A stretch of 64,000 nucleotides of DNA from a virus, in IMG/VR virus record IMGVR_UViG_3300025327_000717, positions 8,954-72,953 of that record; one strand, written 5' to 3'. Of the stretch, positions 8,670 through 61,953 are shown in pieces; position 1 is the first letter of the stretch, and each line of letters begins with the position of its first letter. The notes beneath the pieces are model-generated. The model saw only the letters and a program-made list of their open reading frames with translations. It did no database searches and was not told the origin of the DNA. Position numbers and translations under genes: made by a program.

Positions 8670-8674
8670 GTGGG

Positions 8675-14789: not shown

Positions 14790-15022
14790 ACTCCCTCCTT
14801 CTGGACGACGATGCGGTCCATCTCGCTGATGGCCCAGTCGAGTGCTGCCTGCCACGCCTTGCCCTCAGTCCCGAAGGGACGCCATCCGACATCCTTGACG
14901 TTCTCGACGGCCCGTCTCATCTGCTCGACCTCCTCGGCCAAGAGGGACCGCGATGGTGGCCGCTTGCGCCGGGCGGGCGGGGTCCAGTCGTCCGGGGAAC
15001 TGCCGACGACGTAGATGCTCAT
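14786..15022 (-). CDS. hypothetical protein
   Basis: Starts and ends in boundary repeats. Confidence 0.55.
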   Translation of the reverse strand: MSIYVVGSSPDDWTPPARRKRPPSRSLLAEEVEQMRRAVENVKDVGWRPFGTEGKAWQAALDWAISEMDRIVVQKEGV

Positions 15023-35762: not shown

Positions 35763-35793
35763 AGCATACCATCGTGTCACCATCGTGTATGCT
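35763..35793. promoter_or_regulatory. bidirectional promoter/operator with GTGTCAC box
   Basis: TATGCT on both strands flanking GTGTCAC (35774); + strand -10 lies 6 nt before the rtcB ATG (leaderless). Confidence 0.55.
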
Positions 35794-35799
35794 TTCGTC

Positions 35800-37888: not shown

Positions 37889-38389
37889 ATGATATATGCT
37901 ATTGGCATGGACAGGTTCAAAAGGACAGAAGACCCCGCCACCTTCTTTTCACTCATAAGCCCTGACGGGTGCTGGGAGTGGTCGGGGGCCAGGGACAAAA
38001 ACGGCTATGGACAGACCAAGATTGGGATGCGTTCTGTGAAGGCTCATCGCAAAATCTGGGCCATGCTCTATGGGGGTATCCCCGAAGGTCTTATGATCCT
38101 CCATCACTGTGACAACCCGCCATGCGTCAGGCCTAACCACCTGTTCTTGGGGACTGCGAAGACCAATCGGCAGGACGCAGCATCCAAAGGACACATCCCA
38201 CCCCCTATACATCTCCGTCAAGTCGGCGAGAACAACCCAAGCGCCAAACTAACGGCTGATGATGTCAGGGACATCAGGGCACGCTATGCGACGGGGACCA
38301 TCAGTCAAAAAACACTTGGTGAAGAGTTCGGTCTAGAACAAGCCTCTGTCTCACACATCATCCATCGCAAGTCATGGAAGCATATCTAG
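37889..38389 (+). CDS. HNH homing endonuclease with C-terminal HTH
   Basis: CWEW, AHR, HHCDNPPCVRPNHL. Confidence 0.88.
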   Translation: MIYAIGMDRFKRTEDPATFFSLISPDGCWEWSGARDKNGYGQTKIGMRSVKAHRKIWAMLYGGIPEGLMILHHCDNPPCVRPNHLFLGTAKTNRQDAASKGHIPPPIHLRQVGENNPSAKLTADDVRDIRARYATGTISQKTLGEEFGLEQASVSHIIHRKSWKHI

Positions 38390-38397
38390 GAGGACAG

Positions 38398-39189
38398 ATG
38401 AGTCCAGCGAAAGAAGTCATCACGGATGCTCGGTCGCTCGTCTCCAAGCTCGCTAGGATCGCGAACGCTATCGGTGACAAGGAGCCCATCAGGCACAGCC
38501 GAGACATCAAGTTCCCGTATCACGCCGCGCGTGACGTCTACGGCTGGTGGAGACCGCTCTTGCAGGATGAGGGCATCATCTTGATACCCGATGTGACGAG
38601 ATGTGATGTGATGCAAGCCACGCTGCCACGCTCCGGTGGGGGGACCCGCGTCACCTTCCTCACCACCATCCAGGCCTCGTTCACCATCATCGATGGAGCG
38701 ACGGGAGAGAAGGTCGAGGGGTCTGCTGTCGGTCAGGGCGAGGATCCTAGCGACAAAGGTGCCGGAAAGGCCATGACCTACGCCGAGAAGGCGTTCTTGC
38801 TCGGGATGGGCATGAACGGCTCCGAAAGCGACGTGGAGGCCTACGCCGACTACGAAGACATCCGCACCTCACGTGAAACACGCGACGTCGTCGTCGAAGA
38901 CTCCAACATCGAGGGCATCGCCCGGGGTGGGCGCTCTACGAACGCCACAGACGTCCAAGTGAAGAGGGTCCGCAATCTTGCAGGCGAACTCGGGTATGGC
39001 GTCAACAAGAGTGTGGGGCTCGTGAAGGACGTCCTCGACCTCTCGCCTCGCCTTCCTGAAGAGCCTGATGATCAGGGTCCCGCGTTCGTCCGCTTCCTCG
39101 AGGGCCTGAGCGCAGACGAGATCGGCCGACTCATCCAGTACATGGAGAAGATGCTGGAGCCCACGCCACGTGACGACAGCGGCTACTAG
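38398..39189 (+). CDS. ERF-family ssDNA annealing protein
   Basis: GEDPSDKGAGKAMTYAEKAFL. Confidence 0.82.
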   Translation: MSPAKEVITDARSLVSKLARIANAIGDKEPIRHSRDIKFPYHAARDVYGWWRPLLQDEGIILIPDVTRCDVMQATLPRSGGGTRVTFLTTIQASFTIIDGATGEKVEGSAVGQGEDPSDKGAGKAMTYAEKAFLLGMGMNGSESDVEAYADYEDIRTSRETRDVVVEDSNIEGIARGGRSTNATDVQVKRVRNLAGELGYGVNKSVGLVKDVLDLSPRLPEEPDDQGPAFVRFLEGLSADEIGRLIQYMEKMLEPTPRDDSGY

Positions 39190-40436: not shown

Positions 40437-40967
40437 ATGGTGAAGAGAGAACAGGTCCCCTGCGTGTTCAGGACCTCGTTCGTTCGTGAGGAGATCGACC
40501 CGCGCATCAAAGCGGCATGGCCAGGACGAGCGCCATGGGGCGACCTTCGGAAGACGTGGAAGACGGAGTACTGCCTGCGCGTGAACCCGACGGGCTATCC
40601 TGAGGATTGTCCGTTCAGCGAGGAGGACTGTGCTCTGACGTTCTTGCAGGCAGTCCTCATCGTGACCGAGGCAGAGAGGCCTGGGGCCCTGTTCAGACGA
40701 GTCGCAGCGACCAGAGGTATGGAACGTGCCGATCAGCGCCCACTTGCGAGAGACCGTGTTCCTCAGAGACGCCAGAGCGATCTGGCGAGCCAGCGAGGAG
40801 CATATTCATCATCATCTGTCGTTCAAGCGCTTCATGGCCCAGAAACGGTCACGCCCACTATGTCTCGTCGAGGTGCTCGACCCATCAGCATCGGTGAAGT
40901 GCTCGGGGCGCTGGACTTTGGAGCACGTCAAGGATCAGCTCAGGATGGGGAAGAGGGCCCCGGATGA
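40437..40967 (+). CDS. hypothetical protein
   Basis: GAGGA RBS; ORF tiling. Confidence 0.5.
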   Translation: MVKREQVPCVFRTSFVREEIDPRIKAAWPGRAPWGDLRKTWKTEYCLRVNPTGYPEDCPFSEEDCALTFLQAVLIVTEAERPGALFRRVAATRGMERADQRPLARDRVPQRRQSDLASQRGAYSSSSVVQALHGPETVTPTMSRRGARPISIGEVLGALDFGARQGSAQDGEEGPG

Positions 40968-40990
40968 TGAGTGGCATCTGGTAGTGCTCT

Positions 40991-41494
40991 GTGAGTTTCA
41001 CAACGTCTGGTCGCCCCCGAGCAAGCGGCTTCGCGAGAGCATCAGAGCGTACCTCGCAGACGCCTACCCAGAGGCGCCTCTCGAAGGTGGCAGCAGCCCT
41101 GAACCAGGCATGGCGCTGGACGGCGACCAAGAAGCCGGGACGTAACGAGGGTAGAAGGCTCACAGCCGAGGACCTCGCCAAGGTTTGGCTAGATGACGCC
41201 GGACGATGCCGCTACTGCGATATCGATATCCCGCTGATGACCGCTTCGTTCGATCACGTCGTCCCCCTCTCGAAGCAGGGCCCCCATCTGCCACAAAACC
41301 TCGCGGCATGTTGTATCACCTGTCAGCGTTCTAAGTACACCAAGACATCCGATGCTTATCAAGAGTTCATGAGACTTCAGGTAGTATGCCCTTGTGGGAC
41401 CGTCTTCCGACCACGATGGGCTGATTGGGTCAGGGGGTACGGCCACTATTGCTCTCGCTCGTGCTCGGGCAGGGCGGGCGGGGGGCTCTCTTGA
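40991..41494 (+). CDS. HNH endonuclease
   Basis: CRYC...DHVVPLSKQG...NLAACCITC; C-terminal YCSRSC. Confidence 0.8.
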   Translation: MSFTTSGRPRASGFARASERTSQTPTQRRLSKVAAALNQAWRWTATKKPGRNEGRRLTAEDLAKVWLDDAGRCRYCDIDIPLMTASFDHVVPLSKQGPHLPQNLAACCITCQRSKYTKTSDAYQEFMRLQVVCPCGTVFRPRWADWVRGYGHYCSRSCSGRAGGGLS

Positions 41495-41931
41495 ACCACG
41501 CTTCTGGTCCAAGGTCGTCTGTGACGTCAGGACGAGGTGCTGGAACTGGACAGGGACTCGGGACCCCAGCGGGTACGGCATCGTCACGATGTACTACCGG
41601 AACGTGTGAGCGCATCGAGTCAGCGGACCGCCTAGATGAGAAGCTCCTCGTCTGCCATCACTGTGATAACCCATCGTGCGTCTCGCCGGACCATCTCTTT
41701 CAAGGGACAGATGGAGACAACATGGCCGACCGTGACGTCAAGGGTCGCGTCGCGCACGGAGAGACACACTACGCAGCCAAGCTCACGAACTCACAGGTCG
41801 CCGAGATACGGGGACGCTTCAGGTTTCGCGACCAGGGCCCCGATAGTGGAGTTGCCCTTGCTCGGGAGTTCAAGGTGACGAAGGCTGCCATATCGAACAT
41901 CATCCGGGACCGTAGGCGTCTTCATGGCTGA
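41490..41931 (+). pseudogene. frameshifted HNH homing endonuclease
   Basis: RFWSKV...CWNWTG..GYG in one frame (stop 41609); HHCDNPSCVSPDHL and HTH in another frame; the AHR segment is missing. Confidence 0.65.
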
Positions 41932-42343
41932 TCGACGGACGAAACGCCAGAAACTTGAGGCCATGGCGCAACAGCACGTCTCGCCCAACGAGGCCCGCAT
42001 CGCCCAGCGTCTTCTCACCGAGCAGGACAGCGGACCCATCCCTGATAACCCCCATGGTGGGGTCCACTTCACGAAGTGGCGTGGCAGGTGGATACCCTTG
42101 TTCACGAGCAACCACTTCGCTGACGATGACGTTCCGCAGGAGCGCACAGTCGATGCACGGTCATCGCCCGATACCGTCGTCATCAAGCTCGATGGCGTCG
42201 ACATCACCTCGGATGTGGTCTTTGCCCAACCCAGATCGCTAGGCCGCAAGACGAGTCCGAAGAAGGCTTACGACCAGATGACGTTCGAGGAGTTCTGGTA
42301 TCAGGAGACCGGACACTACCCAGAGTGGAAGATAGACGAGTGA
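41924..42343 (+). CDS. hypothetical protein carrying an exact copy of the tail-protein N-terminal peptide
   Basis: DUF2786-like start (KLEAMA...SPNEARIAQRLL); internal TVVIKLDGVDITSDVVFAQP. Confidence 0.6.
   Translation: MADRRTKRQKLEAMAQQHVSPNEARIAQRLLTEQDSGPIPDNPHGGVHFTKWRGRWIPLFTSNHFADDDVPQERTVDARSSPDTVVIKLDGVDITSDVVFAQPRSLGRKTSPKKAYDQMTFEEFWYQETGHYPEWKIDE
42172..42233 (+). repeat. 62-bp perfect inverted repeat, copy 1
   Basis: Exact reverse complement of 53119-53180. Confidence 0.95.
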
Positions 42344-42849
42344 AGTGGGGTTTCACGCTCCCTGGACAACCGCCAAGCTGGAACACGGCCTATCGCATCA
42401 TCACGATGCATGGTCGGCGCGGTGGCTATCAGGCACTCGGCAAGACGCCAGATGCGAAGCGTTACCAGATCGGCGCCGCCAACATCATCCGTAGCGCCAA
42501 GCCATCACGTTGGAAGCCGATCGGGCAACTGCGTATCCACTACTGGCTCTATCTGGCCCGCGATATGGACTGCGACAACGTCCTGAAGCTCATCAACGAT
42601 GTCATCCAGACGGCCACAGGAGTCGACGACAAGTGGTTCCTACCGACAGTCGAGGAGAAGACGACAGGATGGGGCAAGAAGGCGCGAGTGGAGGTCGTCA
42701 TCGAGGACCACGAATCGCCCTATGCGGGTCGACCGGCCTCGAGCACTACCCCGACTCCCTCCTCGAGTTCATCGGCAGTCTCCCCGCCAACACCGTCCTC
42801 TGTCTCAGGGCTCCCGAGAAGCGAGATCCAGGCCTCTTCGAACAGGTGA
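42340..42849 (+). CDS. rusA: RusA-like Holliday junction resolvase
   Basis: PPSWN, DCDNVLKLIND, GVDDK, RVEVVIE. Confidence 0.8.
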   Translation: MKWGFTLPGQPPSWNTAYRIITMHGRRGGYQALGKTPDAKRYQIGAANIIRSAKPSRWKPIGQLRIHYWLYLARDMDCDNVLKLINDVIQTATGVDDKWFLPTVEEKTTGWGKKARVEVVIEDHESPYAGRPASSTTPTPSSSSSAVSPPTPSSVSGLPRSEIQASSNR

Positions 42850-43136
42850 TGGCCAAGCTGGCCATCAGTCTGTGGCTTGACGTGGAGTGGTTTCGTCCTG
42901 ACCCGATAGGGGGGAAGGGGGCGACGTTCCTTCGAGATATCGAGTTGGTGCGCTCGGTCGATCTGGTGTTGGCATACTTCTCCACCACCACGCTGATCGG
43001 CGGGACAGCACACGTCGTCGAGAAGGCGATGGACTTGGAGACACCGGTCTATGCATATGGCTTCACCGGAGATGGCTTTATGCGTGTCGGTGAGCATGAT
43101 TCGCATGACGCATGGGGTCGATCAGTCCCAGGATAG
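42669..43136 (+). CDS. SLOG-like protein
   Basis: RIALCGS, FLRDIELV...DLVLAYF...GGTAHVVEKA; start uncertain. Confidence 0.6.
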   Translation: MGQEGASGGRHRGPRIALCGSTGLEHYPDSLLEFIGSLPANTVLCLRAPEKRDPGLFEQVMAKLAISLWLDVEWFRPDPIGGKGATFLRDIELVRSVDLVLAYFSTTTLIGGTAHVVEKAMDLETPVYAYGFTGDGFMRVGEHDSHDAWGRSVPG

Positions 43137-43170
43137 AGCGCCGGGGGGCTGACCCGACAAAGGCACTGCT

Positions 43171-43545
43171 CTATCGCCCCCCGGCGGACTTGGTCCTACC
43201 ATCCGGCCCCCCTGTGTCGAGGGTCGAAATAGACCGCTGTGATTGTCGCGCATCTGAGAGCATGTTGGCTAGTCGCACCATCTGCTTTGATCGCCAGCCA
43301 CGTGGATACTTCAGGAAGGCTCGTTTGACCGCTCCATCACGCAGGCGTCGTACCGGAGCGGTCCATGATGGATCGGAGCGACGGAGCTCATAGCGCCTCT
43401 GGCGATCACGTTGGCAGGCTCGACAGACCGGCCACTGCTGACCTGCCACATAAAGACCGACGATCTCTGTGGGATGACCCTTTGGGCAAAGGTCCTCATG
43501 GACGCTGACGTCATGGGGTGTCCAGTTGCAATACTGGCACCGCAT
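43171..43545 (-). CDS. Cys-rich hypothetical protein
   Basis: CQYC, CPKGH, CRAC motifs. Confidence 0.5.
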   Translation of the reverse strand: MRCQYCNWTPHDVSVHEDLCPKGHPTEIVGLYVAGQQWPVCRACQRDRQRRYELRRSDPSWTAPVRRLRDGAVKRAFLKYPRGWRSKQMVRLANMLSDARQSQRSISTLDTGGPDGRTKSAGGR

Positions 43546-43548
43546 CTA

Positions 43549-43938
43549 TCAATACCAAGCGAGCAACTTATCTACGGCCGACACGATGATCGTTCTGGTG
43601 TCGGTGACCGAATAACGTTCTGGCTTGGCGTTACGGATGGCTCGGTCGTTGAGCCATGCCGTCGTATGATCTATCGGCTCAGACAGGATGATCATCCTGT
43701 AGGCGACCTCGAACTCCCTCACCGACACTCGGCGTAAACGCCGCATGGCTTTGGTCATCCGATAGCGCGGCCCGTCTTTATCAGCAAGCCATGACTTGAG
43801 CTCCGGACTCCACTGAGGTGCCCCACCAGCATCGAGTGCGACCGAGTGCATCCGGATCGGGATGTCCTTCGTCCAGTCATCACGAAGGATGACCATCCAC
43901 TTGGCGGTGTGTTCGACGACATCTGGAGTGATCGGCAT
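43549..43938 (-). CDS. hypothetical protein (possible helical transcription regulator)
   Basis: C-terminal pattern loosely like sigma region 4 / late activators. Confidence 0.4.
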   Translation of the reverse strand: MPITPDVVEHTAKWMVILRDDWTKDIPIRMHSVALDAGGAPQWSPELKSWLADKDGPRYRMTKAMRRLRRVSVREFEVAYRMIILSEPIDHTTAWLNDRAIRNAKPERYSVTDTRTIIVSAVDKLLAWY

Positions 43939-44175
43939 CGATACACGGTATCAAGTCTGCGGACCATGGTGGCTCTTCTCCTCCCATGCCGCTCGCCGTA
44001 TAGGATCGGTCGGCACGAGGAGCGCACCACAATCAGGACACTTGGGAACCTTGATGCGGGGTGTCTTGAGAGCCCGATGAGCCGTCTCTCGTGGACATCG
44101 AGGACAGATGAGGGGGATCCCATATCCCCCGACGGTCATGGCCCCCCGTTATGGCCGTCCCAGTCCTCCATGCTC

Positions 44176-44559
44176 TTAGCCCTCCGGGACAGGTTGCTGT
44201 GGATCTCGCGTCAGAAGCCGCGGGCCACTCTGGGGCCCCCACGATCTAAGTATCGAGCCTGCGGTCTCGACCACGTAGAGGCCTGCCGCTGCGACACCGA
44301 TCGAGAGCAGGGCTGGCACGTTGGCGACTGGGATGACGATATTGTCAGCGAAGTAGCCCGCGAAGAGCAACAGCCAGATGGGGATGACGCGACCCATGAT
44401 GTGGGTGCGCAAGAAGGCGGCTACGACGTCGAGTTCGAGGGTCTGATCGCGGATAGCTGCCGCGACTCCTAGGGCGAAGTCCAAGAGTGGAAGGACGATG
44501 ACCCAGATAGCCAGTTGCCCCGCTTCTGAGTCGAAGAACGCCTTGATGGCTTCCGGCAT
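44176..44559 (-). CDS. holin-like membrane protein
   Basis: Three hydrophobic segments; directly after endolysin. Confidence 0.65.
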   Translation of the reverse strand: MPEAIKAFFDSEAGQLAIWVIVLPLLDFALGVAAAIRDQTLELDVVAAFLRTHIMGRVIPIWLLLFAGYFADNIVIPVANVPALLSIGVAAAGLYVVETAGSILRSWGPQSGPRLLTRDPQQPVPEG

Positions 44560-44571
44560 GACGATATCTCC

Positions 44572-45327
44572 CTATGTACGGCGCACGACGCTCGAGTGGA
44601 CATATCCCACTTGGCTAGCTGAAGGGACCCAGACACGGAACCATGTCTTGTTCCCTCCGATGGCCTCGCCTTGTTCGGTGCCACCAGATGTGAGTCGTTG
44701 GCGCCCTGCGATCGTGGCGATGACGAACGCCGTGCGGTCAGGATGGAGTCGTACGTTGGCCTTGATCCTGGCCTCCACCCTCTGGACGCGCATGACCACG
44801 GCATAGATGCCACCTGAGAACTGACTCGCGAAGCGCTCGACATACTGTTCGGCTTCATGGATCGGCCAAGTGATCCAACCTTTGGGGATACCAGGACGTC
44901 TGCCATCGTTGAGTGGGTCGCCGACGCGCACTTTGTCCGGCTGGACAGCCTGATACATGACGCTGTGCAGCCCCTTGAAGTCCTTGTCGCCCTTGAGGTT
45001 CTGTGGCAGTGAGTCGTAATCACCGCTCACGACCGCGAAGCGTCCTGCCTTCAGCATCGAGAGCAGTGCGGGCCAGTGGAGGGCATCGGTGAAGTCGAAG
45101 GATTCGACGGGGACACCCAGTCTCTCCATGGCGTTGGTGATGCCGCTGATCGTCAGCCCACCCTCCATGTCGCCTGTGAGTCGACGGAAGTGCTCTGGGG
45201 TGGGGTCCTTCAGGCCTAGCGTGGCCTGGTCGGTAAGCATGGCTCCCGAAGCGGCACCGCAGTTGGTGGACTGCAGCGGACTGCCAGTGAGTTGCTTCTC
45301 GAAGTGCGGCAAGTAAAAACGCATCAC
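44572..45327 (-). CDS. endolysin, C39/papain-like peptidase plus SH3b-like domain
   Basis: Q...NCGAASGAM, HSV, GDPL catalytic triad; C-terminal ANVR...WFRV...GYVHS. Confidence 0.75.
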   Translation of the reverse strand: MMRFYLPHFEKQLTGSPLQSTNCGAASGAMLTDQATLGLKDPTPEHFRRLTGDMEGGLTISGITNAMERLGVPVESFDFTDALHWPALLSMLKAGRFAVVSGDYDSLPQNLKGDKDFKGLHSVMYQAVQPDKVRVGDPLNDGRRPGIPKGWITWPIHEAEQYVERFASQFSGGIYAVVMRVQRVEARIKANVRLHPDRTAFVIATIAGRQRLTSGGTEQGEAIGGNKTWFRVWVPSASQVGYVHSSVVRRT

Positions 45328-45333
45328 ATCCTC

Positions 45334-45462
45334 CTAGCCCATCGGGCCCGCTGGCCAGCGCCACACCGTGGCGTTCCCGGCAAGCACGGGCGCCACCGCC
45401 AGCGCGCCGACGAAGGCCAAGAGGGTGCCGGCGACGCGCGGACCACCATAGAATCTCGTCAC
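45334..45462 (-). CDS. 42-aa membrane peptide
   Basis: GTG start overlapping upstream TGA, GGAGGA RBS, one hydrophobic helix (below ORF-track cutoff). Confidence 0.4.
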   Translation of the reverse strand: MTRFYGGPRVAGTLLAFVGALAVAPVLAGNATVWRWPAGPMG

Positions 45463-45770
45463 GCTGTCCTCCGTAGCGTCAACTCATCCCACGCCCATGC
45501 CGTCACGATGATCGCTGACGCCACCCTCAGGGAGAGGGACACGAACGACACCATCACCTCTATGACCGCACCATCCAACGTGAGGAGATGTCGAGCGAAA
45601 AGCGTCCAGAGGCCGAGGATCGCGAACATGACCAAAGCCATCTTGGCTGCGAGTATGTTCGACCGTCCATCCCAGAATCTGACCACCAAGATGACCATCA
45701 AGATGATGTGGATGGCGACGAGGATGTTGAGAGACATCAACCCATCGTTGATCGTGATCAGGTCATCCAT
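45459..45770 (-). CDS. membrane protein (lysis cassette)
   Basis: Three hydrophobic segments. Confidence 0.6.
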   Translation of the reverse strand: MDDLITINDGLMSLNILVAIHIILMVILVVRFWDGRSNILAAKMALVMFAILGLWTLFARHLLTLDGAVIEVMVSFVSLSLRVASAIIVTAWAWDELTLRRTA

Positions 45771-45987
45771 CTTTCAGTCTCGCGACCCCGGCTAGCGTGA
45801 GAGCGGATGTCGTCAGTGTGGCCAGGAGTGCCACCAAAGTCCCTTCGCTCAGAGCATAGTCCTTCTGGATGAGCGGAAGCAACACGACCGCGACGATGAC
45901 GAAGACCATGGTCCCGACGATGACGGCGACCGAGACAGCCCTGATCTTGGCGAGTAGGCGCTGTTCCTCTGGCGTCGGCTTCGACAT
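45763..45987 (-). CDS. membrane protein (holin-like)
   Basis: Two hydrophobic segments. Confidence 0.6.
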   Translation of the reverse strand: MSKPTPEEQRLLAKIRAVSVAVIVGTMVFVIVAVVLLPLIQKDYALSEGTLVALLATLTTSALTLAGVARLKDG

Positions 45988-46107
45988 GCGTGCTCCGTTC
46001 ATGGTCTTGTCTGCGAGCGGCGCACTGCACCTCACCCATATCGATGACAACCCCCGGTCTTGGTGGCCGACCTCCTGCTTTCTATCTATACCAGCCATCC
46101 AGCCGAT

Positions 46108-46791
46108 CTAGGCTTTGATGATACGGATGTATCCGGGCATGTAGTTACCCGCCCCGCCTGCCCCGGCCTGGATAGTTCCGTTGGAGTCCGCTCGCCATGC
46201 GCGCCATGAGTAGGTGTGCGCCGCAGCCGATGGTGTCAGGCGCACCGTGATGAGCCCCGCGGTGCGCCCGCTCGACTGAGTAAGCTGCGCCGTGATGCCA
46301 AGAGCAGTCGAGCCGTCGAACAGGTCGATGAGCACACTGGCGGTGCCGCTGCCCGTCACGATGTAAGGCGCCCACAACTCGACGATGATTGCGGTGCTGC
46401 CGTTGAACGTGATCTCTGCCGCCGTGACGATCACGTCGGCCCCCGCCTCGGTCGTCGCCGAGACGGCGACTGGCGAAGTGAACTCGACGTAGCTGTATTC
46501 ACGGCCTGGCGCGATCTCCGCGATCGCCTGTGCCAGCCCAGCCGCCGTGAGGACCGCGTCGATGGCGGCTCCGTCGTCATGGGTGGCAGGTGTCGTTCCC
46601 TCTGCTCCTCGTTGGACCGTCAGGGTATTCGTAGCTCGTGAGGTAACGAGCATGAGTTCGTCGTCAACCTTGACGCGGAAGTTACCTGACGATGGGAAGA
46701 CAGCACCAGAGGCGACATCCACCCCTGTCTCGTTGTCATCGAGAGGCTCCGCGAGTGTCGTGTGGCCAAAGTTAGCGAGCTGCTCTGTCAT
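46108..46791 (-). CDS. tail fibre / receptor-binding-like protein
   Basis: DDELMLVT...LTVQRGAEGTTPATH N-domain and beta-sandwich C-domain. Confidence 0.7.
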   Translation of the reverse strand: MTEQLANFGHTTLAEPLDDNETGVDVASGAVFPSSGNFRVKVDDELMLVTSRATNTLTVQRGAEGTTPATHDDGAAIDAVLTAAGLAQAIAEIAPGREYSYVEFTSPVAVSATTEAGADVIVTAAEITFNGSTAIIVELWAPYIVTGSGTASVLIDLFDGSTALGITAQLTQSSGRTAGLITVRLTPSAAAHTYSWRAWRADSNGTIQAGAGGAGNYMPGYIRIIKA

Positions 46792-47402
46792 GTCGTATCT
46801 CCGAGGGTATCGTCACCCAGTGTGATCTCGCCGAGGTTGCTTCGTGCCTCACTATCGCCTATCACAGCATCGATCGTGAAGGAACCCATCAAGGTATCAG
46901 TGAGGATGGCTTCGATGCTGAAACTCTTGCCCAAAAGCCAAGCATCGACCGTCAGTGAACCACTTGTAAGAGCGCGGATGATCGCATCCGCGGAAGCCGA
47001 CCCACTGATCACTCTCTTGGCGATGGCATCTACTGTGAGGAGGCCTGACAGCGTCCTCTTCGCGACGGCACTGGCTGTGAAAGAACCTATCTGGCCGATC
47101 CTGATGATGCTGTCGACCGTGAAGGATCCAGGCACGGTGTCACTTTCAAGCCACGCGTCGATGACCCAAGATTCCAGGCGGGTACGCATGATGATGGCGC
47201 TCGCCGAGAACGAGCCGCTGATCCGGTAGGTGTTCTCAAGTACGGACAGTCTGGAGTCGAGGATCGTGAGAAGGGCTTCGACCGTCGAGCCGGCAGGTAG
47301 GGCTCCGATAGCCTCTGTGAGCTCCACGAACGTCGTTGATAGATCGCCGAAGTGATGCTCTGTCCCGCGCTCATGTCGATTGCGGTAGGTCGTATGGCTC
47401 AT
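46788..47402 (-). CDS. virion protein with FTVDA repeats
   Basis: About nine repeats of (S)F-T-(V/I)-D-A-x-I. Confidence 0.7.
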   Translation of the reverse strand: MSHTTYRNRHERGTEHHFGDLSTTFVELTEAIGALPAGSTVEALLTILDSRLSVLENTYRISGSFSASAIIMRTRLESWVIDAWLESDTVPGSFTVDSIIRIGQIGSFTASAVAKRTLSGLLTVDAIAKRVISGSASADAIIRALTSGSLTVDAWLLGKSFSIEAILTDTLMGSFTIDAVIGDSEARSNLGEITLGDDTLGDTT

Positions 47403-47857
47403 ACGATGAAGGCGTTGATGGTGAAGATGCCAGCGATGCAGGCATCGACAGTGAAGATGCCACCCTTGCTGAGCACAGCATCGACCAGGAACGACCCGGA
47501 GAACGTCCTCTTGATGACAGCATCCATGACGATGACCTGGTCGCTGATCCACGCGTCGACCGCGAACGTCGCCTTCGTGCGCGTGTAGTCCTCGAGATAG
47601 ACCAGACGCTGGGCCATGTCTGCCAGCACCCAGTGGATCGGTGTGAACGCTTCGTACTTCCCGACCTTCTCCGAGAGGACTACGTAGAGATCGCTCTCTG
47701 GTCCGAAGTGATCCCTGACGCGATGATGCTTCCAGCGCTCACCGATGATCCATGCGTCGATGGTGAACGAGCGAGCAGTGATGACGGCATCGATGGCGAA
47801 GGCGGGCAGCGCCGTCTTGAAGATGACAGCGTCGACGACGAACGAGGAGGCTGGCAT
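47399..47857 (-). CDS. virion protein with FTVDA repeats
   Basis: About eight repeats of F-x-(V/I)-D-A-x-I. Confidence 0.7.
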   Translation of the reverse strand: MPASSFVVDAVIFKTALPAFAIDAVITARSFTIDAWIIGERWKHHRVRDHFGPESDLYVVLSEKVGKYEAFTPIHWVLADMAQRLVYLEDYTRTKATFAVDAWISDQVIVMDAVIKRTFSGSFLVDAVLSKGGIFTVDACIAGIFTINAFIV

Positions 47858-47858
47858 C

Positions 47859-49448
47859 TCACTCGCTCACGTATCCGATGGCCCACATCTGATCACCCGT
47901 TCCTGGCGCGGTGATGAACGTCACCTGCTTGCTCGTCGGGTCATAGGTGTAATCGATGGTCGGACGCTGGAAGAGGCCGTTGAGGAAGAGGTCGAACTGA
48001 CCCTGATAGAACGTGTATGGGAACGTGAACGAGGTTCGCGTCCCGTTGGCGGTCTCATCTGGATAGACGGTCGCGAACGACCCTGCAGGCACGCCAGCGC
48101 TTGAGTTATCCACCAAGACGGTCGTTTGGCCGATGGTGCCCTTCTGTCGCCGCAACGCCCTCCAGAGATGCCGAGAGTCCGAGAACGAGGTCCCGAACTC
48201 ACCCTCAAAGCGGACATACGTCTGGCCACCAGGATTTTCGGTCGGCAGGGTCGGGAACGAGACACGGATGCTGCGGCATGGCAGCGTCGTGACCAGTGGG
48301 ACTCCTGGACTCGGTCCTTGGGTGTAGAGGATGAAGTTCATGAGCATACCCGGGACGACATGTGCGCCGCCAGGGACATCATGGGCGAACCACACTACGT
48401 TCATCGTCTCGGTGGGTCGTGAGAGTCCGCCCTCGATGCCTTGTGTCGGGACAGTCCCTGGCGGGCCGTTGATGATGACGAAGGCGCGGTTTTTCACCGA
48501 TCCCTGGGTCAGGTAGTTCTCCTGCCCAGCCCGTTCCTCGGCATACTGCCAGCGCCCATACAGGTTGCGACGGTCGATGGCGGCCTGCTCTCGGTCAGCG
48601 GGCTGTAGCCTTCCGTGCCATGTCGCATCCACGGCTGGCGGGTCAGGATAGCGAGCGAAGACGATGTCGCCTGCTGGTCCACCGGGATTGCGGATCGAAG
48701 AGCCACCCCAGACGAGCGCATCGGTCACGACCTGCTCGAAGTTCTCTGAGTACTCGCCCTCACGGAAGCCGATGGTCGTGACGCCGTTGGGGTTCGAGTC
48801 TGTGAACGCCCACGGCGATAGCAGCGTCTCGTATTCATGGAGATGGACCCTGAAGTCGGCGTCGATGTAGTAGATGACCCCACCGTTGTCTGAGAAGTCG
48901 TCCATCTGTTCGCGCCATGTCTTGCCCTGTCCGACGAAGAGTCCACCGTTCTCCTCTGTCCCATACGAGGTCGTGATGACATCACGGAACGTCGCGAAGT
49001 CGAGTCCGGCAGGGACGTCGATGAAGTTCTCCATCAGGTACTTGAAGGCCTCGCTGATGGTGCGCGAGCCAGAGGGCACCTCGAGCGCGCTCGTGGGGTC
49101 CGCTGAGTCGTAGAGCACACGCTTATCGAAGAGGATGTTGAAGTCTGGCCCTGTCAGGATCCACTTCCTCGAACGGACCGCGGACGGCACGGATGTGTCA
49201 TCTGCGGCGAGGAAGTTGCCACGTCCGATGCGCATGAGATAGCCACCGAAGAGCGGCATGCTATCGAGATGGAACGCCAGCTTTTCGCCCGCTGTCGGCG
49301 AGAAGTTCTGAGAGAGGTCCCGAGCAGCTAGCTTGAACGAACCCTGGACAGGGTTGGCCTGACTCGTGAACATCGTCTCCTGATAGACGACACGGTCGCT
49401 GATCTCTGTCCCGTCGAGCGTGATGGAGATGTCGGATGGTGTCGCCAT
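47859..49448 (-). CDS. minor tail protein
   Basis: Paralogous to the N-terminal part of 49448-53185 (NILF.KR, FYID.D, ALVWG, YGRWQYAE); C-terminal LFLNG...DYT module. Confidence 0.75.
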   Translation of the reverse strand: MATPSDISITLDGTEISDRVVYQETMFTSQANPVQGSFKLAARDLSQNFSPTAGEKLAFHLDSMPLFGGYLMRIGRGNFLAADDTSVPSAVRSRKWILTGPDFNILFDKRVLYDSADPTSALEVPSGSRTISEAFKYLMENFIDVPAGLDFATFRDVITTSYGTEENGGLFVGQGKTWREQMDDFSDNGGVIYYIDADFRVHLHEYETLLSPWAFTDSNPNGVTTIGFREGEYSENFEQVVTDALVWGGSSIRNPGGPAGDIVFARYPDPPAVDATWHGRLQPADREQAAIDRRNLYGRWQYAEERAGQENYLTQGSVKNRAFVIINGPPGTVPTQGIEGGLSRPTETMNVVWFAHDVPGGAHVVPGMLMNFILYTQGPSPGVPLVTTLPCRSIRVSFPTLPTENPGGQTYVRFEGEFGTSFSDSRHLWRALRRQKGTIGQTTVLVDNSSAGVPAGSFATVYPDETANGTRTSFTFPYTFYQGQFDLFLNGLFQRPTIDYTYDPTSKQVTFITAPGTGDQMWAIGYVSE

Positions 49449-52400
49449 CAGGTCACCTTCGTGTAGCCAGCGCTGACCGACCCGTAGCCCACCGTGTCGG
49501 CTCCGATGACGATGCCAGCGGCATACGCTTTCAACTCATCGGTGGTGTAGAGAGTGGGGTAACGATAGAGCGGATCGATGCCCCAGAAGTTGCCGTTCGC
49601 GAAGCGTTCGTTGATGTAGATGGCATGAGCGCCTGTGAAGTTGCTGAGTCGCTTCGAGGCAGGCAGGTTGCTGTAGATGCCTTGCAGGACGGCTCCCTGC
49701 CTGGCGTCGATATGCGTGACGAACGCGCTCCAACTCTGGATGCCCCAGCCATAGAACGTCTCGCCCCAGCCGGCAGACCATGCAGTCTCGACATCGTCCA
49801 ATCCGCCTCCAGTCGACTGGTCGGACTGGAAGCCACGATGATTGGGTGGCGTGTTGCGAGGGGTTCCCGCGAACGCCGTGTTCGCTCCTAGCGTATGCCG
49901 GTCAAGGGCCATCGCCGAGCAAGCGAAGATCGCGTTGTAGCCGTCCATCGGCGTGCCCCAGCCGTACTGGAGTTGTGGAGCCGGGCGATAGACCTCACCA
50001 CCAGATGAAGTCGGGACACTCCCTGCTCGCGTGTACTTCACGAGCAACGATGATGAGATGTCCCTGTCACCAAGGATGCGAAACTCACCGGTCGTCGGGT
50101 CTGTCTCGATATAGTCGACGTTCGGTCGCAAGCGGATGCCCTGGAAATAGACCACCAGCGAACCCGCAGCGTATGGGTACTGAGTGATGTAGTACTGCGC
50201 CCCAGCATGCTCAGCGTTGTCATAGATAGGGATGTTGGTGACAAGTTGTCCCGTCCCACCGCCACCACTGGATGAGGCCACGGCGGTCGGAAGGGCGTCC
50301 CAGACAGCATCAGCAGCCCAGCCGCGAGGCGCCACGATGACGCCACCCGTGGCTCCGTCGATCTCCAGCAGCACGGGTGAGTCGAAGAAATCGGGACTTC
50401 CATGGAACTCAGACCCAGCTACGGAGGCCTTCCCAGAGAAGGCTGCCATCGAAGCCCCGGTATACGTGAAGGCCGGCGCCAGCGTCCAAAGAGCGGCGCC
50501 ATCAGGACTATAACCACCGTACTGACCGGAGCCCGAATACACGATGATGTTGCCTGTGGACTCATCGACACCGACACCATCGGCGATGGCCTGAGAAGCA
50601 CCAGACGTCTTGGTGACGATATTCTTGATGAACGTCATGGTCGACCCGTCCCACTCGTCCAAGTACCACGTCGATGCTTCCCGTCGGATTAAGTAGAACT
50701 TTCCTCGGTCCGGATGGGTGACAAGCCGAAACGATCGGGTGGAGGTCGAGAACACCGAAACGTCAGCCGTAGCTTGTGGTCCACCAGTCGGTCCGTATCG
50801 GTGGACTTGATAGAAACCAGTGACCGTTACGCCGGTCCGGGCTATCGGGCGCGACACCATGTAGTACGTGTCACCTGGCCCCTTGGCGAGCCCAGCATAG
50901 AAACTGCGATCGTGGAAGAACTCCTCTGTAGTGATCAGCCACTCAGTAGTCGGATCATCGAGATCTTCCCAGATCGCGCTCGCAGCAGTCGTGTGATCGA
51001 CGGTGATGCCGCCAGGAGACGCCATCCTTATGTTCGAGTCATCCGAGATGTCGAACCACTCGCCACTCGCATGCTGTCCGACCAAGGATGCGTCAGCGCC
51101 CTCTATCGGACAGTCGACGGAATAGGCAGGGATAGAACCACTGCCTGTATATCCAGGAAGGGTAGTGAAGTCGAAGATTTGGACAGTGTCGGCGTTTCCG
51201 AACTCGATCTTCGCTCGGATCCCATACTGGTCGAGCCTGGGCCCGACCCCCACCCACTCACGTTGTTCGAAACCGTTCACACCAGCGCTAGGATCCCACA
51301 ACCATAAGGGCCATACGCCAACGGTGAACCCGTAATACCGCCAGGGGCTCTCGTTGTAGGCGTTGATGCGATAACCGCTACCAACTAGATAGTTGTATGG
51401 AGAAGCTGGCGGCGTGTTCGGCCAATAACCATAACTTGTTTCCACGTGCCCAAGCCCGGAATCCGGACCCGTCAAGAGTTCACGGAAGAACATGACAGAG
51501 CCGGTCCCGGGATCCAACTGGAGCAGGTTGCCATCCCCACCCCAGAACAGGTAAAGGTATCCGTCAGCGAGCACCATCTGCCCATCGCCAGAGAAGAAAC
51601 TTTGGCTCATGAACGTGGTCCAGAGTGGAGTCCCATCGGGAGAATACTTATGGATACCTACCCATGAACTATCCCAACCCGCTGAGGCGACCTGGGCAAA
51701 AGAGTTGACGTATAAGCCAGTGGCGTCAGCCGCCGCGCTCCACACCTCCAGCTCCTCTGTCGCAGGGAACGGTCCCGAAGGATAGGGATCATCGTCAGGG
51801 TGTCGATAAGTGCCGACCGCACCAAGCATGTCGTCGTTCATCAACAGATTCCATGTGGGCGGTCCATCGTCTGCAAAGGCGGAGATGAAGGCCCTGTCTC
51901 CAGCGGACTGGGCATAGAGCCCCTCGAACGTTGGTCCGTTCGCCCCATCGCTGAAGAACGTGCCCAAGACATAGGTCATCGGTGACGCCCCACCGATGCC
52001 ACCAGGCCCCTCGGGCGGGATGGTCTCTGAGATATCGAAGGGGGACGGAAAAGCGAACTTCCACAGGTCGGGAACGCCGAAGGGTGTATCGACCCGAAGC
52101 GTCAGTTCGATGTCCCAGCGCGGTTCTGTCGGGGTGAGGAACGTGATGGTCGATGAACGGACGGGCAAGTCCTCTTGGTAGTCGAACGTCGTCATGCGAA
52201 AGTCGACGACGTGCCCGACCCGGATGCCCGGGGTGAAGAGACTGCAGGTCACGACCGGGACTGGATCGTTATGACCACGCCGATGGCTTGGTGAGCCCTC
52301 GACATACGTGCGAGCACGGCGGTTGACAGTCTGTTGCTTCCACGCACCGACGTAGACCTCTCCGTACTGCCAGAGTCCATGCAGTGCCACGCGATCGGTG

Positions 52401-53185
52401 TCGGTGTACTTCGCGAAGACAGGGTCCGCAGAACCCAACCCGGCGCCCCAGATGAGGGCTTCGTTGCCAGCGTCGGTGTAGTCTCTCGCGGCCTCAGCCT
52501 CGCGGTAGCCGACCTGACCTGCAGTGGGGGCATCGGAGAGGACGAACGGCGCTGTGACGGTCCTGTCATCGATGTAGCGGAGGACGCGGTCCGGGTCGAT
52601 GTAGAAGACGGCTCCCGTGATCTTCGCGGCGTCATCGAAGAGCACTCCTAGCGGGGCGCTGACGTACCCCAGCGTGAACTCCTCGAAAGGGCCCGGAGAG
52701 GCGACTTGCTCGATGCCTGACTCGATGTCCAAATCATCGCCAGAGAGATCGACGTAGTTGTTCAGGGCGAAGTCGATGGCCTGCTTGTCAGACGTGTCCG
52801 TGGGCCAGATCGTGAAGCCCTCGTTATTGGCAGGGTCGTCGATCCGATACATGAAACGCTTCTGGAAGAGGATGTTCCGGTCGTAACCCTCGATGATCCA
52901 GAAGCGCGGCACGGTGACTGGCTGTGAGGTGTCGTCGACCGGCAGCGGCCATGCACGCCGGACCTTGAACGCCCAGCCATCCCACTCGCGCTGTCCATCG
53001 ATGAACAGCTCGAGCGTCATCCCGGTTCGGATGTCGTCAGGGGTGTAAGCCTGCTGCTCATCATCGATGAGGACGACAGCCGTCCCGGGCTGCCCGTCAG
53101 CAAGACCCCTGAAGTTGGTGGGTTGGGCAAAGACCACATCCGAGGTGATGTCGACGCCATCGAGCTTGATGACGACGGTAGCCAT
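49448..53185 (-). CDS. large multidomain tail protein (hub/Tal-like, beta-propeller-like region, C-terminal C39-like domain)
   Basis: Follows tape measure; YSPDG..LWT repeats; HAIYI...IDPL at C-terminus. Confidence 0.78.
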   Translation of the reverse strand: MATVVIKLDGVDITSDVVFAQPTNFRGLADGQPGTAVVLIDDEQQAYTPDDIRTGMTLELFIDGQREWDGWAFKVRRAWPLPVDDTSQPVTVPRFWIIEGYDRNILFQKRFMYRIDDPANNEGFTIWPTDTSDKQAIDFALNNYVDLSGDDLDIESGIEQVASPGPFEEFTLGYVSAPLGVLFDDAAKITGAVFYIDPDRVLRYIDDRTVTAPFVLSDAPTAGQVGYREAEAARDYTDAGNEALIWGAGLGSADPVFAKYTDTDRVALHGLWQYGEVYVGAWKQQTVNRRARTYVEGSPSHRRGHNDPVPVVTCSLFTPGIRVGHVVDFRMTTFDYQEDLPVRSSTITFLTPTEPRWDIELTLRVDTPFGVPDLWKFAFPSPFDISETIPPEGPGGIGGASPMTYVLGTFFSDGANGPTFEGLYAQSAGDRAFISAFADDGPPTWNLLMNDDMLGAVGTYRHPDDDPYPSGPFPATEELEVWSAAADATGLYVNSFAQVASAGWDSSWVGIHKYSPDGTPLWTTFMSQSFFSGDGQMVLADGYLYLFWGGDGNLLQLDPGTGSVMFFRELLTGPDSGLGHVETSYGYWPNTPPASPYNYLVGSGYRINAYNESPWRYYGFTVGVWPLWLWDPSAGVNGFEQREWVGVGPRLDQYGIRAKIEFGNADTVQIFDFTTLPGYTGSGSIPAYSVDCPIEGADASLVGQHASGEWFDISDDSNIRMASPGGITVDHTTAASAIWEDLDDPTTEWLITTEEFFHDRSFYAGLAKGPGDTYYMVSRPIARTGVTVTGFYQVHRYGPTGGPQATADVSVFSTSTRSFRLVTHPDRGKFYLIRREASTWYLDEWDGSTMTFIKNIVTKTSGASQAIADGVGVDESTGNIIVYSGSGQYGGYSPDGAALWTLAPAFTYTGASMAAFSGKASVAGSEFHGSPDFFDSPVLLEIDGATGGVIVAPRGWAADAVWDALPTAVASSSGGGGTGQLVTNIPIYDNAEHAGAQYYITQYPYAAGSLVVYFQGIRLRPNVDYIETDPTTGEFRILGDRDISSSLLVKYTRAGSVPTSSGGEVYRPAPQLQYGWGTPMDGYNAIFACSAMALDRHTLGANTAFAGTPRNTPPNHRGFQSDQSTGGGLDDVETAWSAGWGETFYGWGIQSWSAFVTHIDARQGAVLQGIYSNLPASKRLSNFTGAHAIYINERFANGNFWGIDPLYRYPTLYTTDELKAYAAGIVIGADTVGYGSVSAGYTKVT
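53119..53180 (-). repeat. 62-bp perfect inverted repeat, copy 2
   Basis: Covers codons 3-22 of the tail gene plus one flanking base each side; identical to 42172-42233 on the opposite strand. Confidence 0.95.
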
Positions 53186-56100
53186 CAGCCCACCAGCATC
53201 GCGACTTCGTCGTGAAGCGCTCGCACCACCTTGCGGACCATACGGTCCTCGTCAGCCTCGCCGCGTACATCGGCCTTCACGTTGACGTTGATGTTGATGG
53301 GACTGCCACCACCACGTCCGAGACCACCAGGGGCTCCGTTCATACGTGGGTTGCGCATGACGACGACAGCCTCGTTCCCGATCTCACCTGCGAGGAAGCT
53401 GGTCGGTCGAGAGACCAGGTCGATCCCGCCAGAAGCACGACGCTTCCCTCTCTCGACGAATAGCGGCAGATCTTCATCTAGCGTGCCTCGTCCGACGTTG
53501 CTGCCAGTACGCGGTTGTGCTGTCCCTTGCTTCTCTGCGAGCCCCACGATGGGCAAGACAGGCTCGAGTCCGTGTAGCCATCCAGTGACGTAGGTATCGA
53601 GCGCCTTGAGGCTGATCTCGGTGACCCTTCCAAGACGCTGCTCGAGTGTCTCGGCGATACGGATGGACCCTTGACGTGCAGCCACGCCCATGTCACGAGC
53701 GAGGTCGAGGGCAGCCTGCTTGACCTGCAGCAACTGCTCTTTCGCTTCGATGACCTTCTGGATGCCTCTGACCTCGATGGTCACAGCACGTGCCCGCTGG
53801 AGCAGTCCGAGCTGCTTCACAGCATCAGTCAACTGACGACCGAACCCGATGTCTTCGATGCGGAAGCCACGCTGAGCCGTGCGTTTACCGATGTCGAGTT
53901 CACGCTGCTGCTCGCGCACGAGCAACTCGGCCTCACGTCGGCGGACTGCCCGCTCTTCTGGCGTCTCACCCGGAGAGCGCAGTCGAGACAGGGAGAGTTG
54001 CAGGTTCAACTCGCGCTGTGAGCGCGCCAACTGGATACGCGTGAGTTCGCGGCCATCGTTGATCTGGGCACGCTGCAGTTCACCAAGCTGTGTGGCCCCG
54101 ACGACTTGGTCGCCGATCGATACGGCCTGTCGCTGGTTCAGAGCGACGAGGTCTCCGATGGAGCGGACGCTGATGCGGATCTGCTCGTTGTACTGAGCTT
54201 GCTCGAGGCCGAGTTGCAAGTCTTCAGCATCCGTTCGCAAGGCCGTGATGGATGCACCCAACTTGGCGACACTCTGGATAGCAACATCGGGGACACCAAG
54301 ATTCCGGAGTTCGGTCAGGCCTTCATCTCGGATGTCGGCGAGCGCATCGCGCGAGCGCGTGATGGCGCCTTCGTACTTGCCAGCGGCCGCAGCGGCAATC
54401 GGGTCGACACCACTCGTGGCCGTGATGCCTGTCATAGCGTTGGTCGGGAAGGGGCGCGCGATGAGTTGCTCTGCTGCAGCCGCAGGGATGAGTTCGCGCT
54501 GCAACTCGAACTGGCGGGCCTGGGCCCGGAAGGATGCTTCCATCTGTCGACGACTCACTGTCAACAACTGGTTGACATCTGGCGTGGTCGCCCCTCGGCC
54601 ACCCAACTCAAGCAGACGATTCAACTCCATGCCAGTGAGTTGACGGTCACCGGGACCAAGCGCCGCGACACCAGCACCAGCCCAAGCCTCCCGGACCTCC
54701 CGACTGGCTCCGATGTCGCTCAACGCCTTCGTCGATCTCTCGATGAGACTCGCATCTGTGGTCGTGATCAGTCGTCCGGGACTCAACTCACCGTTGAACT
54801 TGACCCAACGATCGACACCCTCGTTGAACGAAGCAACAGCCTTGCCTGTCAGGGCGTTTGCTGAGGCAGCAGCCCGCTGCTGCCTTTCGATCATGTCTGT
54901 CAGGCCAAGGAGTTGCTCGTTCCGTGGAGCGCGGCCGAAAGCGATGTCCTCAGCGTTCTGGACTGTCTCAAGCCACTGCGTCAGGGGGTCCTTGACAGCA
55001 GGCGCGATCGTCGTGGCTGCGACCGCTGAAACAGGATTACCGAACGTCCCACCCAGACTCTCTGCGATGCCCGGTGTCTGGCCGATCCATGTCCCGAATA
55101 GGCCGTTCCCAACGCCGACACCCAAGCCAGGGATTTGATTGCCACGCTGGCCCTCGAAGACCTGAGTGGCCCGAAGGAACGCCTGCTGCTGCTGGAACTG
55201 CTGGGCACCAGCCGTGATGGCGGTCATCCTCGCGAGGCCGCCTGTCTCGACCCCGCTGACACCAAGTGCGGCCATCCTCTCTGCGATGACGGCGTTGATA
55301 TCGCCGCTTCGCTGGATCACCTCTGGTGCCATCTCACTGGTGACACGTCTGGCCGTGAAAGCAAAGCCAGACAATCGATCCCCAGCATCCGTGGCTATCT
55401 TCCCGAGATTCTCTATGGCCACCTGGGAAAGATTCATGGCAGCCGTGAACAACATGGTGCCGCCCACGATGCCCACCAGGCCTGCAGCCTGAGACCGGAC
55501 CTGCTGCCCTGGTGACAAGATCGTCTCTGAGGCGGTCTTGGCCGCAGCCACCTTCTCCTCTACGACAGGCCTGATGTCCGCGATCCTCTGAGTCTGCTCC
55601 TCCCAGACCCCGAAGAGCTTGTCGAACGCCTTGCCCTGCACCGCCGACATCCGATCCCTGGCCTCGGCCCACTTCCCTCTATCAGTGGTGCCAGCCATGG
55701 TCTCGAGATCGAACTGCGCCCTATCAGCGATCTCCGTGGCGCCACGTACCTCGCCCAAAGCACCTTGCGCCCTACGCTCGAGCGCACGAGCCTGCGAAGC
55801 ACGCTCCAGGATCCCCTGACGACCGCCGATCATGATCTGTGAGATCTGGCCCATGGCCACAGACAGGGCTCGGACAGGACTCTTCTGGAAAGCCTCGCTG
55901 ATATTGACGCCGACCTGGTCGAGTGTCAGTTGGAGTTCGCTCACCGCATCTTCAGCAGCGAACTTGGCCCTTGACCCGGTGGTGGTCTGGCGACCACTTG
56001 GTACCCCATATCCTTGACGTGGGAGTCCACCACCAAACGGCGATACCTCTGTGCCCAGCTCACCAGCCTGAGTCTCAGCAGCCATCCTGCCAGCAGGCAT

Positions 56101-61910: not shown

Positions 61911-61953
61911 GTCTCCTCCGCAGGATGTACGATATGGGGATGGAGGTAAAGCC

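Follow-up and report, generated by a model that had tools for sequence, protein, structure and literature searches.

A perfect 62-nt inverted repeat shared by an early gene and the baseplate hub gene of a metagenomic phage: a probable scar of ectopic repair

Results and Discussion

The inverted repeat and the genes that carry it

The IMG/VR virus record IMGVR_UViG_3300025327_000717 is a viral metagenome contig of 72,953 nucleotides (nt) that represents an uncultured soil phage and is classed as linear and 88% complete. We analysed its bases 8954-72953, a stretch of 64,000 nt which is called the window below and to which all positions refer unless the record is named. The window contains a perfect inverted repeat: the 62 nt at 42172-42233 (copy 1, plus strand) are the exact reverse complement of 53119-53180 (copy 2, minus strand; 100% identity), with 10,885 nt between the two arms. 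This is the sole long perfect inverted repeat in the window, the runner-up being a pair of 35 nt with 74% identity. In the whole record the sequence is present in two copies only, and a short-word self-BLAST of 41900-42360 revealed no further match above 19 nt.

Both copies are located inside genes and are translated in the same frame to TVVIKLDGVDITSDVVFAQP. These residues correspond to residues 84-103 of a protein of 139 amino acids (aa; P0001) encoded by a small early gene, the open reading frame (ORF) at 41924-42343 on the plus strand, which we call ORF139, and to residues 3-22 of a tail protein of 1245 aa (P0002) encoded at 49448-53185 on the minus strand. The perfect repeat, its common frame and the sizes of the two genes had been reported in the initial annotation and were confirmed by direct comparison. 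The stop codon of ORF139 overlaps the start of a gene for a RusA-like resolvase (42340-42849, plus strand; 169 aa from the GTG at 42340), which was assigned by family matches and the start of which was checked against proteins of public contigs. The ATG of the 1245-aa gene is overlapped by the stop codon of the presumed tape measure gene (53185-57918, minus strand; 1577 aa from the ATG at 57918), which was named by size and position alone and has no family match in Pfam or PHROGs; its start was chosen based on an upstream AAGGAG motif and an exact database match. The segment between the arms (42234-53118) comprises the end of ORF139, the RusA gene, small ORFs, holin-like and other lysis-region genes, fibre-like genes and the body of the 1245-aa gene. 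In general, early genes occupy the plus strand up to approximately 43.1 kb, and late genes on the minus strand converge on them. Scanning 41000-45000 for promoters and terminators revealed none.

Copy 2 is native to a baseplate hub gene

The first 400 residues of P0002 have 547 relatives at E<=0.001 among protein representatives. Of 53 family members whose N-termini were compared, most begin at residue 1 with the motif M-x-T-V-x-I-[KR]-x-D-G-x-D-I-T-x-D-V. A structure model of the N-terminus based on 51 sequences reached a predicted local distance difference test score (pLDDT) of 90.2 and a predicted template modelling score (pTM) of 0.85. In Foldseek it was matched, with probability 1.00 and E values from 1e-16 to 1e-10, to solved baseplate hub proteins, namely the MuSo2 43-kDa protein (3cdd), Mu gp44 (1wru) and the Listeria prophage protein gp18 (3gs9), all with E of about 1e-16, a baseplate chain of phage 80alpha (6v8i_AE, 4e-11), and also T4 gp27 (1k28_D). 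Searching the solved structures by sequence with the same N-terminus gave nothing meaningful. Judged by the modelled fold, which over residues 1-377 is that of the N-terminal part of baseplate hub, gp27, Mu gp44 and Tal proteins, the 1245-aa product is a Tal-like baseplate hub, the gene of which adjoins the presumed tape measure gene. The designation as a tail protein can thus be refined to that of a hub.

Copy 2 starts at the last base of codon 2 of the hub gene and ends at the first base of codon 23. In the model, a large domain rich in beta structure begins with one strand and a turn, which are formed by the encoded residues 3-22. Since the N-terminal motif is conserved from residue 1 across the hub family, copy 2 is native and the direction of copying is settled.

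Two side observations concern this region. The hub protein has no Pfam or PHROG match; its N-terminal domain represents a family of at least 547 representatives which both collections fail to recognise despite the clear gp27-like fold. Further, no separate Dit-like gene exists between the tape measure gene and the hub gene.

Copy 1 is an in-frame insert in ORF139

Among 5.8 billion proteins, ORF139 has four homologues (P0003-P0006), and the 20 residues are absent from all four. The closest one, P0003, is a 118-aa protein encoded on a single contig of 2411 nt. It matches ORF139 at 113 of its 118 residues, and at the protein level the alignment shows a clean gap of 20 residues exactly at TVVIKLDGVDITSDVVFAQP and one alanine missing further on. 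In addition, when nine related loci (L003-L011) were compared with the window by blastn, neither arm of the repeat was matched. The lack of the 20 residues in the homologues and of both arms in the related loci means that the 62-nt identity consists of a 60-nt ectopic insert (42173-42232, codons 84-103 of ORF139) flanked on either side by a single base which the source also has.

The insert is letter-identical to the hub gene of its own genome. It has serine at residue 15, as this hub gene does, while the nearest hub variants (P0159, P0007 and P0158) have alanine there, and therefore it was copied from the own gene of this lineage, and recently. The recent origin suggested by the zero mismatches in the initial annotation is further supported by the exact absence of the insert from P0003. 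For active homogenisation of the two copies, which had been offered as an alternative, we found no evidence, and the idea that the insert might track the tail genes of relatives finds no footing in the ORF139 family, as all four homologues are without any such insert.

The insertion site lies in a linker which is hypervariable and prone to insertions and deletions in the family alignment. Residues 61-112 of ORF139 have a pLDDT below 50 in a model that was built from a shallow alignment of five sequences. The six differences between P0001 and P0003 are all located within 13 residues before and 14 residues after the insert. Their accumulation is not evidence for an event at this site, because the same stretch is the hypervariable linker of the family. 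More generally, clustered substitutions as a sign of error-prone repair were considered and not counted, since each cluster has an ordinary explanation. The densest cluster of differences between the window and the close relative L003 (42262-42276, about four events) is not beyond chance, as other 12-nt windows also contain four. Between the hub protein and P0159, residues 15 and 27 are the sole differences. Both are P0007 states; the next P0007-specific sites are window-like, and a recombination tract fits equally well.

ORF139 itself matches no Pfam family at E<=0.01. Its N-terminus had been described as DUF2786-like, and for this only weak backing exists: two distant homologues, in L007 and L005, match DUF2786 (PF10979) with 22.4 and 20.3 bits, respectively, below the cut-off of 23.9 bits. 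No confirmed relative was found in viral_contigs with P0001 and the hub N-terminus as queries; an alignment search of the same collection detected one distant locus (L011), and a search of genome_contigs with the smaller family alignment A4 found nothing.

Copy 1 is present in independent assemblies

Since the record is a metagenome-assembled viral contig, linear and 88% complete, we considered that copy 1 could be an artefact of assembly or library preparation. The exact 139-aa protein is, however, encoded on nine contigs from JGI, ENA and MetaClust. Moreover, Logan contigs (k=31) were compared in four runs. Such contigs cannot span a 62-nt repeat, and the way in which they end is informative: in the run X1, which is possibly the source, and in X2, which originates from another sample, a unitig of 1167 nt corresponds to 41035-42201 without a single difference (depth 10.3 in X1 and 9.48 in X2) and stops exactly 30 nt into the repeat, as predicted at k=31 for a 62-nt word that occurs twice. 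The depth at the left junction of the insert equals that of the flanks in both runs. At copy 2, the unitigs 52443-53148 and 53151 onward show the same stop behaviour. With the left junction present at flank depth in two runs and the protein on nine contigs from several sources, the artefact raised in the initial annotation is largely refuted for the insert, and we consider it hardly credible. No RNA run was among the holder runs listed.

Copy 1 adjoins a mosaic boundary and a mobile-type endonuclease gene

The close relative L003, a metagenome contig of 10,052 nt, allows the surroundings of copy 1 to be compared at the DNA level. Its identity to the window is 80% at 40448-41346, 95.3% at 42240-45345 and 94.0% at 46528-49297. 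Between the first two blocks lies a cassette (41347-42239, plus strand) of 893 nt, in the place of which L003 has 571 other nt. The cassette contains the end of an HNH_5-type endonuclease gene (40991-41494, plus strand), an HNH_3-type endonuclease gene (41425-41931, plus strand) directly upstream of ORF139, and the first 105 codons of ORF139; both HNH genes were assigned by family matches. Within it, L003 aligns over only the first 62 nt of ORF139, at 82% identity. Across 41986-42239 no identity is left, and from position 42240 on it is 95.3%. At this place, L003 harbours a 102-aa ORF without a Pfam match and a 76-aa version of ORF139, and it has no counterpart of the HNH_3 gene.

The insert ends 6 nt before the start of the 95% identity and lies approximately 240 nt downstream of the HNH_3 gene. 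In the family alignment, the boundary is where the variable middle of ORF139 meets the conserved motif GRKTSPK. HNH genes of various types are found beside ORF139 homologues in four of eight other loci (L004, L009, L010 and L011), in changing arrangements. The neighbouring RusA gene is variable: 10 protein haplotypes were found in 17 contig sightings, with reshuffled blocks at residues 23, 37-38, 61, 125-129 and 155-168, which reflects either intense recombination among co-occurring lineages or strain-chimeric assembly.

Minor contigs in X1 and X2 (depth about 5) join 41346 directly to 42240 and carry a 3-nt deletion at 42265. They were considered as a possible insert-free allele and rejected, as they represent the L003-type lineage with its different cassette. 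The presence of this L003-type joint shows that both lineages co-occur in these runs.

Copy 1 is probably a scar of repair with an ectopic template

An inverted copy of 60 nt with sharp ends, about 1 nt of homology at the junctions, a mosaic joint and an adjoining mobile-type endonuclease gene lead us to infer break repair with an ectopic template. We propose that copy 1 is a recent, lineage-specific scar of in-frame repair or recombination in a tolerant linker, without a programmed function, and assign to this interpretation a probability of about 0.7. A break or a stalled recombination intermediate would have arisen at the exchange hotspot beside the HNH cassette and would have been healed with a short stretch from elsewhere in the genome, obtained either by synthesis on this ectopic template or by capture from it. 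Such a product can be termed filler DNA, a templated insertion or a template switch, and approximately 1 nt of sequence would be shared at each joint. The insert would have survived because it is in frame and the linker is poorly constrained. As a side effect, a 62-nt perfect inverted repeat would have originated, which host RecA or the ERF, exonuclease and RusA proteins of the phage could in principle use for flipping the segment between its arms.

Several points weigh against this proposal. The microhomology of 1 nt per side is deduced from the window and the protein alignment and not from the DNA of an empty site, and the right joint shows at least one extra substitution (K to R). The HNH cassette is linked to the insert by its position, and the break and its cleavage site are postulated. 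The copy begins 5 nt after the ATG of the hub gene and keeps the frame of its source, for which the random chance is about 1 in 6. Some of the nine contigs with the exact protein may be one assembly that more than one source has deposited. For copy 1, the right junction is supported by bin depth and is not among the contig pieces listed. Finally, a public contig encodes a recombinant stub, P0157, which is discussed in the next section; if this contig is genuine, the role of the repeat goes beyond that of a passive scar.

The conserved frame could also be read as a sign that the 20 residues have a function in ORF139, as a decoy against a defence system that senses the hub N-terminus or as an early regulator of tail-tip assembly. 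Indeed, the insert keeps the reading frame of ORF139 and is translated as it is in the hub gene, and the insert-containing form is the commonest allele seen (nine contigs versus one for P0003). However, none of the three sense frames of the 62 nt contains a stop codon when read by eye, so that the frame is kept with odds of about 1 in 3 once the length of an insert is a multiple of three. All four homologues do without any such insert, the strand and turn formed by residues 3-22 in the hub model would not fold alone, and the corresponding region of ORF139 is modelled as unstructured. The role as a decoy or assembly inhibitor that the initial annotation had put forward is therefore without evidence, and we consider it very improbable.

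A different route to the same structure would be an inversion at staggered breaks followed by re-inversion. In this scenario, a staggered cut around the first 60 nt of the hub gene and a cut in the linker of ORF139 lead to inversion of the segment, fill-in duplicates the 60 nt in inverted orientation, and homologous recombination between the copies then restores the canonical gene order. The two ends of the segment should then bear one, and only one, inverted duplicate of unique coding sequence, and a surviving flipped form such as P0157 would also be explained. Inversions in Drosophila are accompanied by inverted duplications from staggered breaks, down to 46 bp (PMC1885836). Nevertheless, two rearrangements and a viable flipped intermediate are required, a simple templated insertion would leave the same end structure so that nothing discriminates between the two, and the relatives L003 and P0003 are in the canonical gene order. 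We regard this route as highly unlikely and retain the repair scar as the preferred explanation.

Does the segment between the arms invert?

The initial annotation had predicted that recombination between the arms would invert approximately 11 kb, creating an in-frame fusion of the ORF139 N-terminus to the tail protein and leaving a short stub behind the tape measure. A dedicated enzyme for such an inversion was not detected: a Pfam scan of 108 ORFs revealed neither a serine or tyrosine recombinase nor a reverse transcriptase, and a search for PF00239, PF00589 and PF00078 in six frames over the whole record gave 0 matches, with about 12% of the genome unseen as the record is 88% complete. The controls worked for all three families; those for PF00239 and PF00589 were positive in 13 of 14 and 14 of 14 genomes, respectively. 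The absence of a visible site-specific invertase, which had been noted before, was thereby confirmed.

The segment could instead be flipped by homologous recombination between the arms, mediated by host RecA or by the ERF, exonuclease and RusA proteins of the phage, and both isomers could then occur in nature. The three phage genes are indeed present, as stated in the initial annotation and confirmed by family matches: besides the RusA gene, a PD-(D/E)XK exonuclease gene (37127-37888) and a gene for an ERF-family single-strand annealing protein (38374-39189) are found on the plus strand. The flipped form should contain a fusion of ORF139 residues 1-83 to the hub. It should also have a stub of 58 aa between the tape measure gene and RusA, and the reading frame would be kept in both products. 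A protein of exactly this length, P0157, is called on one public JGI contig of 1773 nt. It consists of M-A, the 20 repeat residues and the last 36 residues of ORF139. In ORF139 the repeat is preceded by P-D, so that only the hub-gene side can have supplied the M-A. A complete RusA gene (product P0168) adjoins the stub on this contig, as the flipped form predicts.

However, the contig mixes lineages: P0168 has the L003-like state at 9 of its 169 residues, but KKAYDQ in the stub is of the window type, so that the lineage switches within about 130 nt. An assembler which switches between strains could also take the wrong exit from a 62-nt repeat. P0157 is possibly cut at the contig end, in which case as few as 5 nt would stem from the hub side, and short proteins are often cut in this way. 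The cluster of the tape measure protein includes no fragment from a 1773-nt contig. The reciprocal fusion was not found among 243 longer candidates, four near-length matches and three members of the hub cluster, which contains two full-length forms and a C-terminal fragment only. One stub contig stands against nine contigs with the canonical ORF139. No strand-changing joint was listed in the four runs, though contigs with k=31 could not show one. Besides, the flipped form would presumably part the hub, fibre and lysis genes from the late operon. A search of viral_contigs for junction patterns was uninformative: the flipped pattern was found 0 times, and so was the canonical control, although this control matches the window.

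Thus, of the predictions made for an inversion, the stub exists as a called protein, and the fusion of the ORF139 N-terminus to the tail protein was not found among the candidates searched. That homologous recombination produces two isomers in nature is in our view unlikely. It is tempting to speculate that the stub contig is real and that the scar-born repeat drives an invertase-independent flip-flop of the 10.9-kb module of tail-tip, fibre and lysis genes, with two isomers co-existing in the wild population. In one isomer, the hub gene would be part of the late operon; in the other, it would be fused to the early gene, and RusA would be coupled to the tape measure gene. We consider this rather improbable; if both orientations appeared in reads, the locus would be a documented instance, and a rare one, of module flipping driven by homology in a phage.

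Other features of the phage genome

The window has a GC content of about 0.61 and no tRNA genes. The genes for portal (4089-5501), terminase (5691-7124) and major capsid protein (62514-63845) are all on the minus strand, and from their positions we conclude that the record represents a permuted, nearly whole phage. No isolated phage was found to be close to it: the portal protein matches those of isolated phages only below 27% identity, and GenBank phages gave no DNA match to 41400-43000 and no protein match to the hub N-terminus or ORF139. The gene at 14077-14463 belongs to the Pfam family Phage_VG64, which is named after a Mycobacterium phage.

With 32602-32967, 37889-38389, 40991-41494, 41425-41931 and 61822-62499, five HNH endonuclease genes are present in one 73-kb phage. 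Three of them are of the HNH_3 type, among them the gene at 37889-38389 (plus strand, family matches) between the exonuclease and ERF genes, and one HNH gene is on the plus strand within the late operon. The HNH_3 genes have a 54-nt repeat family (D1) in common, at 38101, 41655 and 62229, with 61-74% identity.

The early genes include those for an RtcB RNA ligase (35785-36981; E 1e-101) and an RlaP-type nucleotidyltransferase (31753-32469), which by their annotation may form an RNA-repair module, perhaps countering tRNA-cleaving defences. On the late strand, a gene for an NAD-dependent epimerase and three family-2 glycosyltransferase-like genes (28-951 of the window and 6373-8988 of L012, together record bases 6373-9904) are located between the portal region and the gene of a 1435-aa protein with a weak BppU_N match. 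A motif of 29-49 nt recurs with 80-86% identity at 12416-12464, 15011-15059, 16142-16190, 13854-13882 and 14045-14073. In several minus-strand genes it extends over the ribosome-binding region and the start codon, and a GC-rich inverted stretch comes after it; judged by its placement, it may serve the 9-17 kb block as a common regulatory element. Finally, genes for a ParB_N-domain protein (7709-8362), a QueD-like 6-pyruvoyl-tetrahydropterin synthase (8322-8780), a RadC-like JAB protein (29588-30079) and a DUF6551 protein with a weak GmrSD_N match (30285-31331) are all located in non-structural regions.

Significance and comparison with known systems

The finding reveals no new system. It provides a clean, datable natural example of a phage that gains a short ectopic patch at a recombination hotspot beside a mobile endonuclease gene. 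Such a scar instantly creates a substrate for large inversions, which is of some value for understanding phage mosaicism. It is also a warning for metagenome assembly, as a 62-nt inverted repeat can yield chimeric junction contigs.

The phages Mu (G segment, Gin) and P1 (C segment, Cin) have invertible tail-fibre segments. As in these, inverted repeats flank phage tail genes here, and an inversion would give a constant N-terminal part a different fusion partner. Unlike in Mu and P1, an invertase gene is lacking, relatives do not have the repeat, and the 10.9-kb segment includes lysis genes and no alternative fibre C-termini. When measured against Gin-, Cin- and Hin-type segments in general, the locus is without a recombinase, and a conserved crossover repeat is missing in four of four homologues and at nine loci; for the occurrence of both orientations there is one lineage-mixed stub contig and no reciprocal fusion, in data where k=31 contigs cannot span the repeat. 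A diversity-generating retroelement does not fit either, as PF00078 gave 0 matches and the repeats are 100% identical, that is, free of adenine-specific mismatches.

Template-switch mutations at inverted repeats and quasi-palindromes are described by the models of Ripley and Lovett. The insert resembles them in being the reverse complement of a stretch of the same molecule that would have served as template. The distance to this template (10.9 kb) and the lack of older inverted homology beside the site set it apart.

According to PMC10448857, homing endonuclease genes are found where phages have exchanged genetic material, at the boundaries of the exchange. At the present locus, a free-standing HNH gene which is absent from a relative with 95% identity and a sharp edge of identity are in line with that account (PMC10448857). 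On the other hand, an ectopic 60-nt patch beside the boundary is not known as a feature of homing, and a cleavage site and a homing event would have to be postulated here. With the breakpoint duplications in Drosophila (PMC1885836), the locus shares an inverted duplicate of unique coding sequence that bounds a segment, of a size within the range reported there. It differs in that the segment is in the canonical orientation, which calls for a second, re-inverting event, and in the organism and repair context.

The closest parallels are scars of break repair in bacteria. In the actinobacterium Streptomyces ambofaciens, breaks made by I-SceI were healed with copies of 30, 42 and 83 bp from other sites of the genome (PMC5869714). 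Non-homologous end joining (NHEJ) can capture DNA fragments into breaks in Sinorhizobium meliloti (PMC6379672). Different from these scars, the insert was found in a wild phage genome and in frame inside a gene, and the break is deduced from the outcome. As in these scars, tens of bases from the same genome were placed with sharp ends and, apparently, little or no junction homology between flanks that are otherwise intact. Two characteristics of a filler insertion are likewise seen in ORF139: the insert is identical over 62 of 62 nt to a sequence elsewhere in the genome, the source of which is clearly native, and the closest allele, P0003, is without the stretch, with precise boundaries at the protein level.

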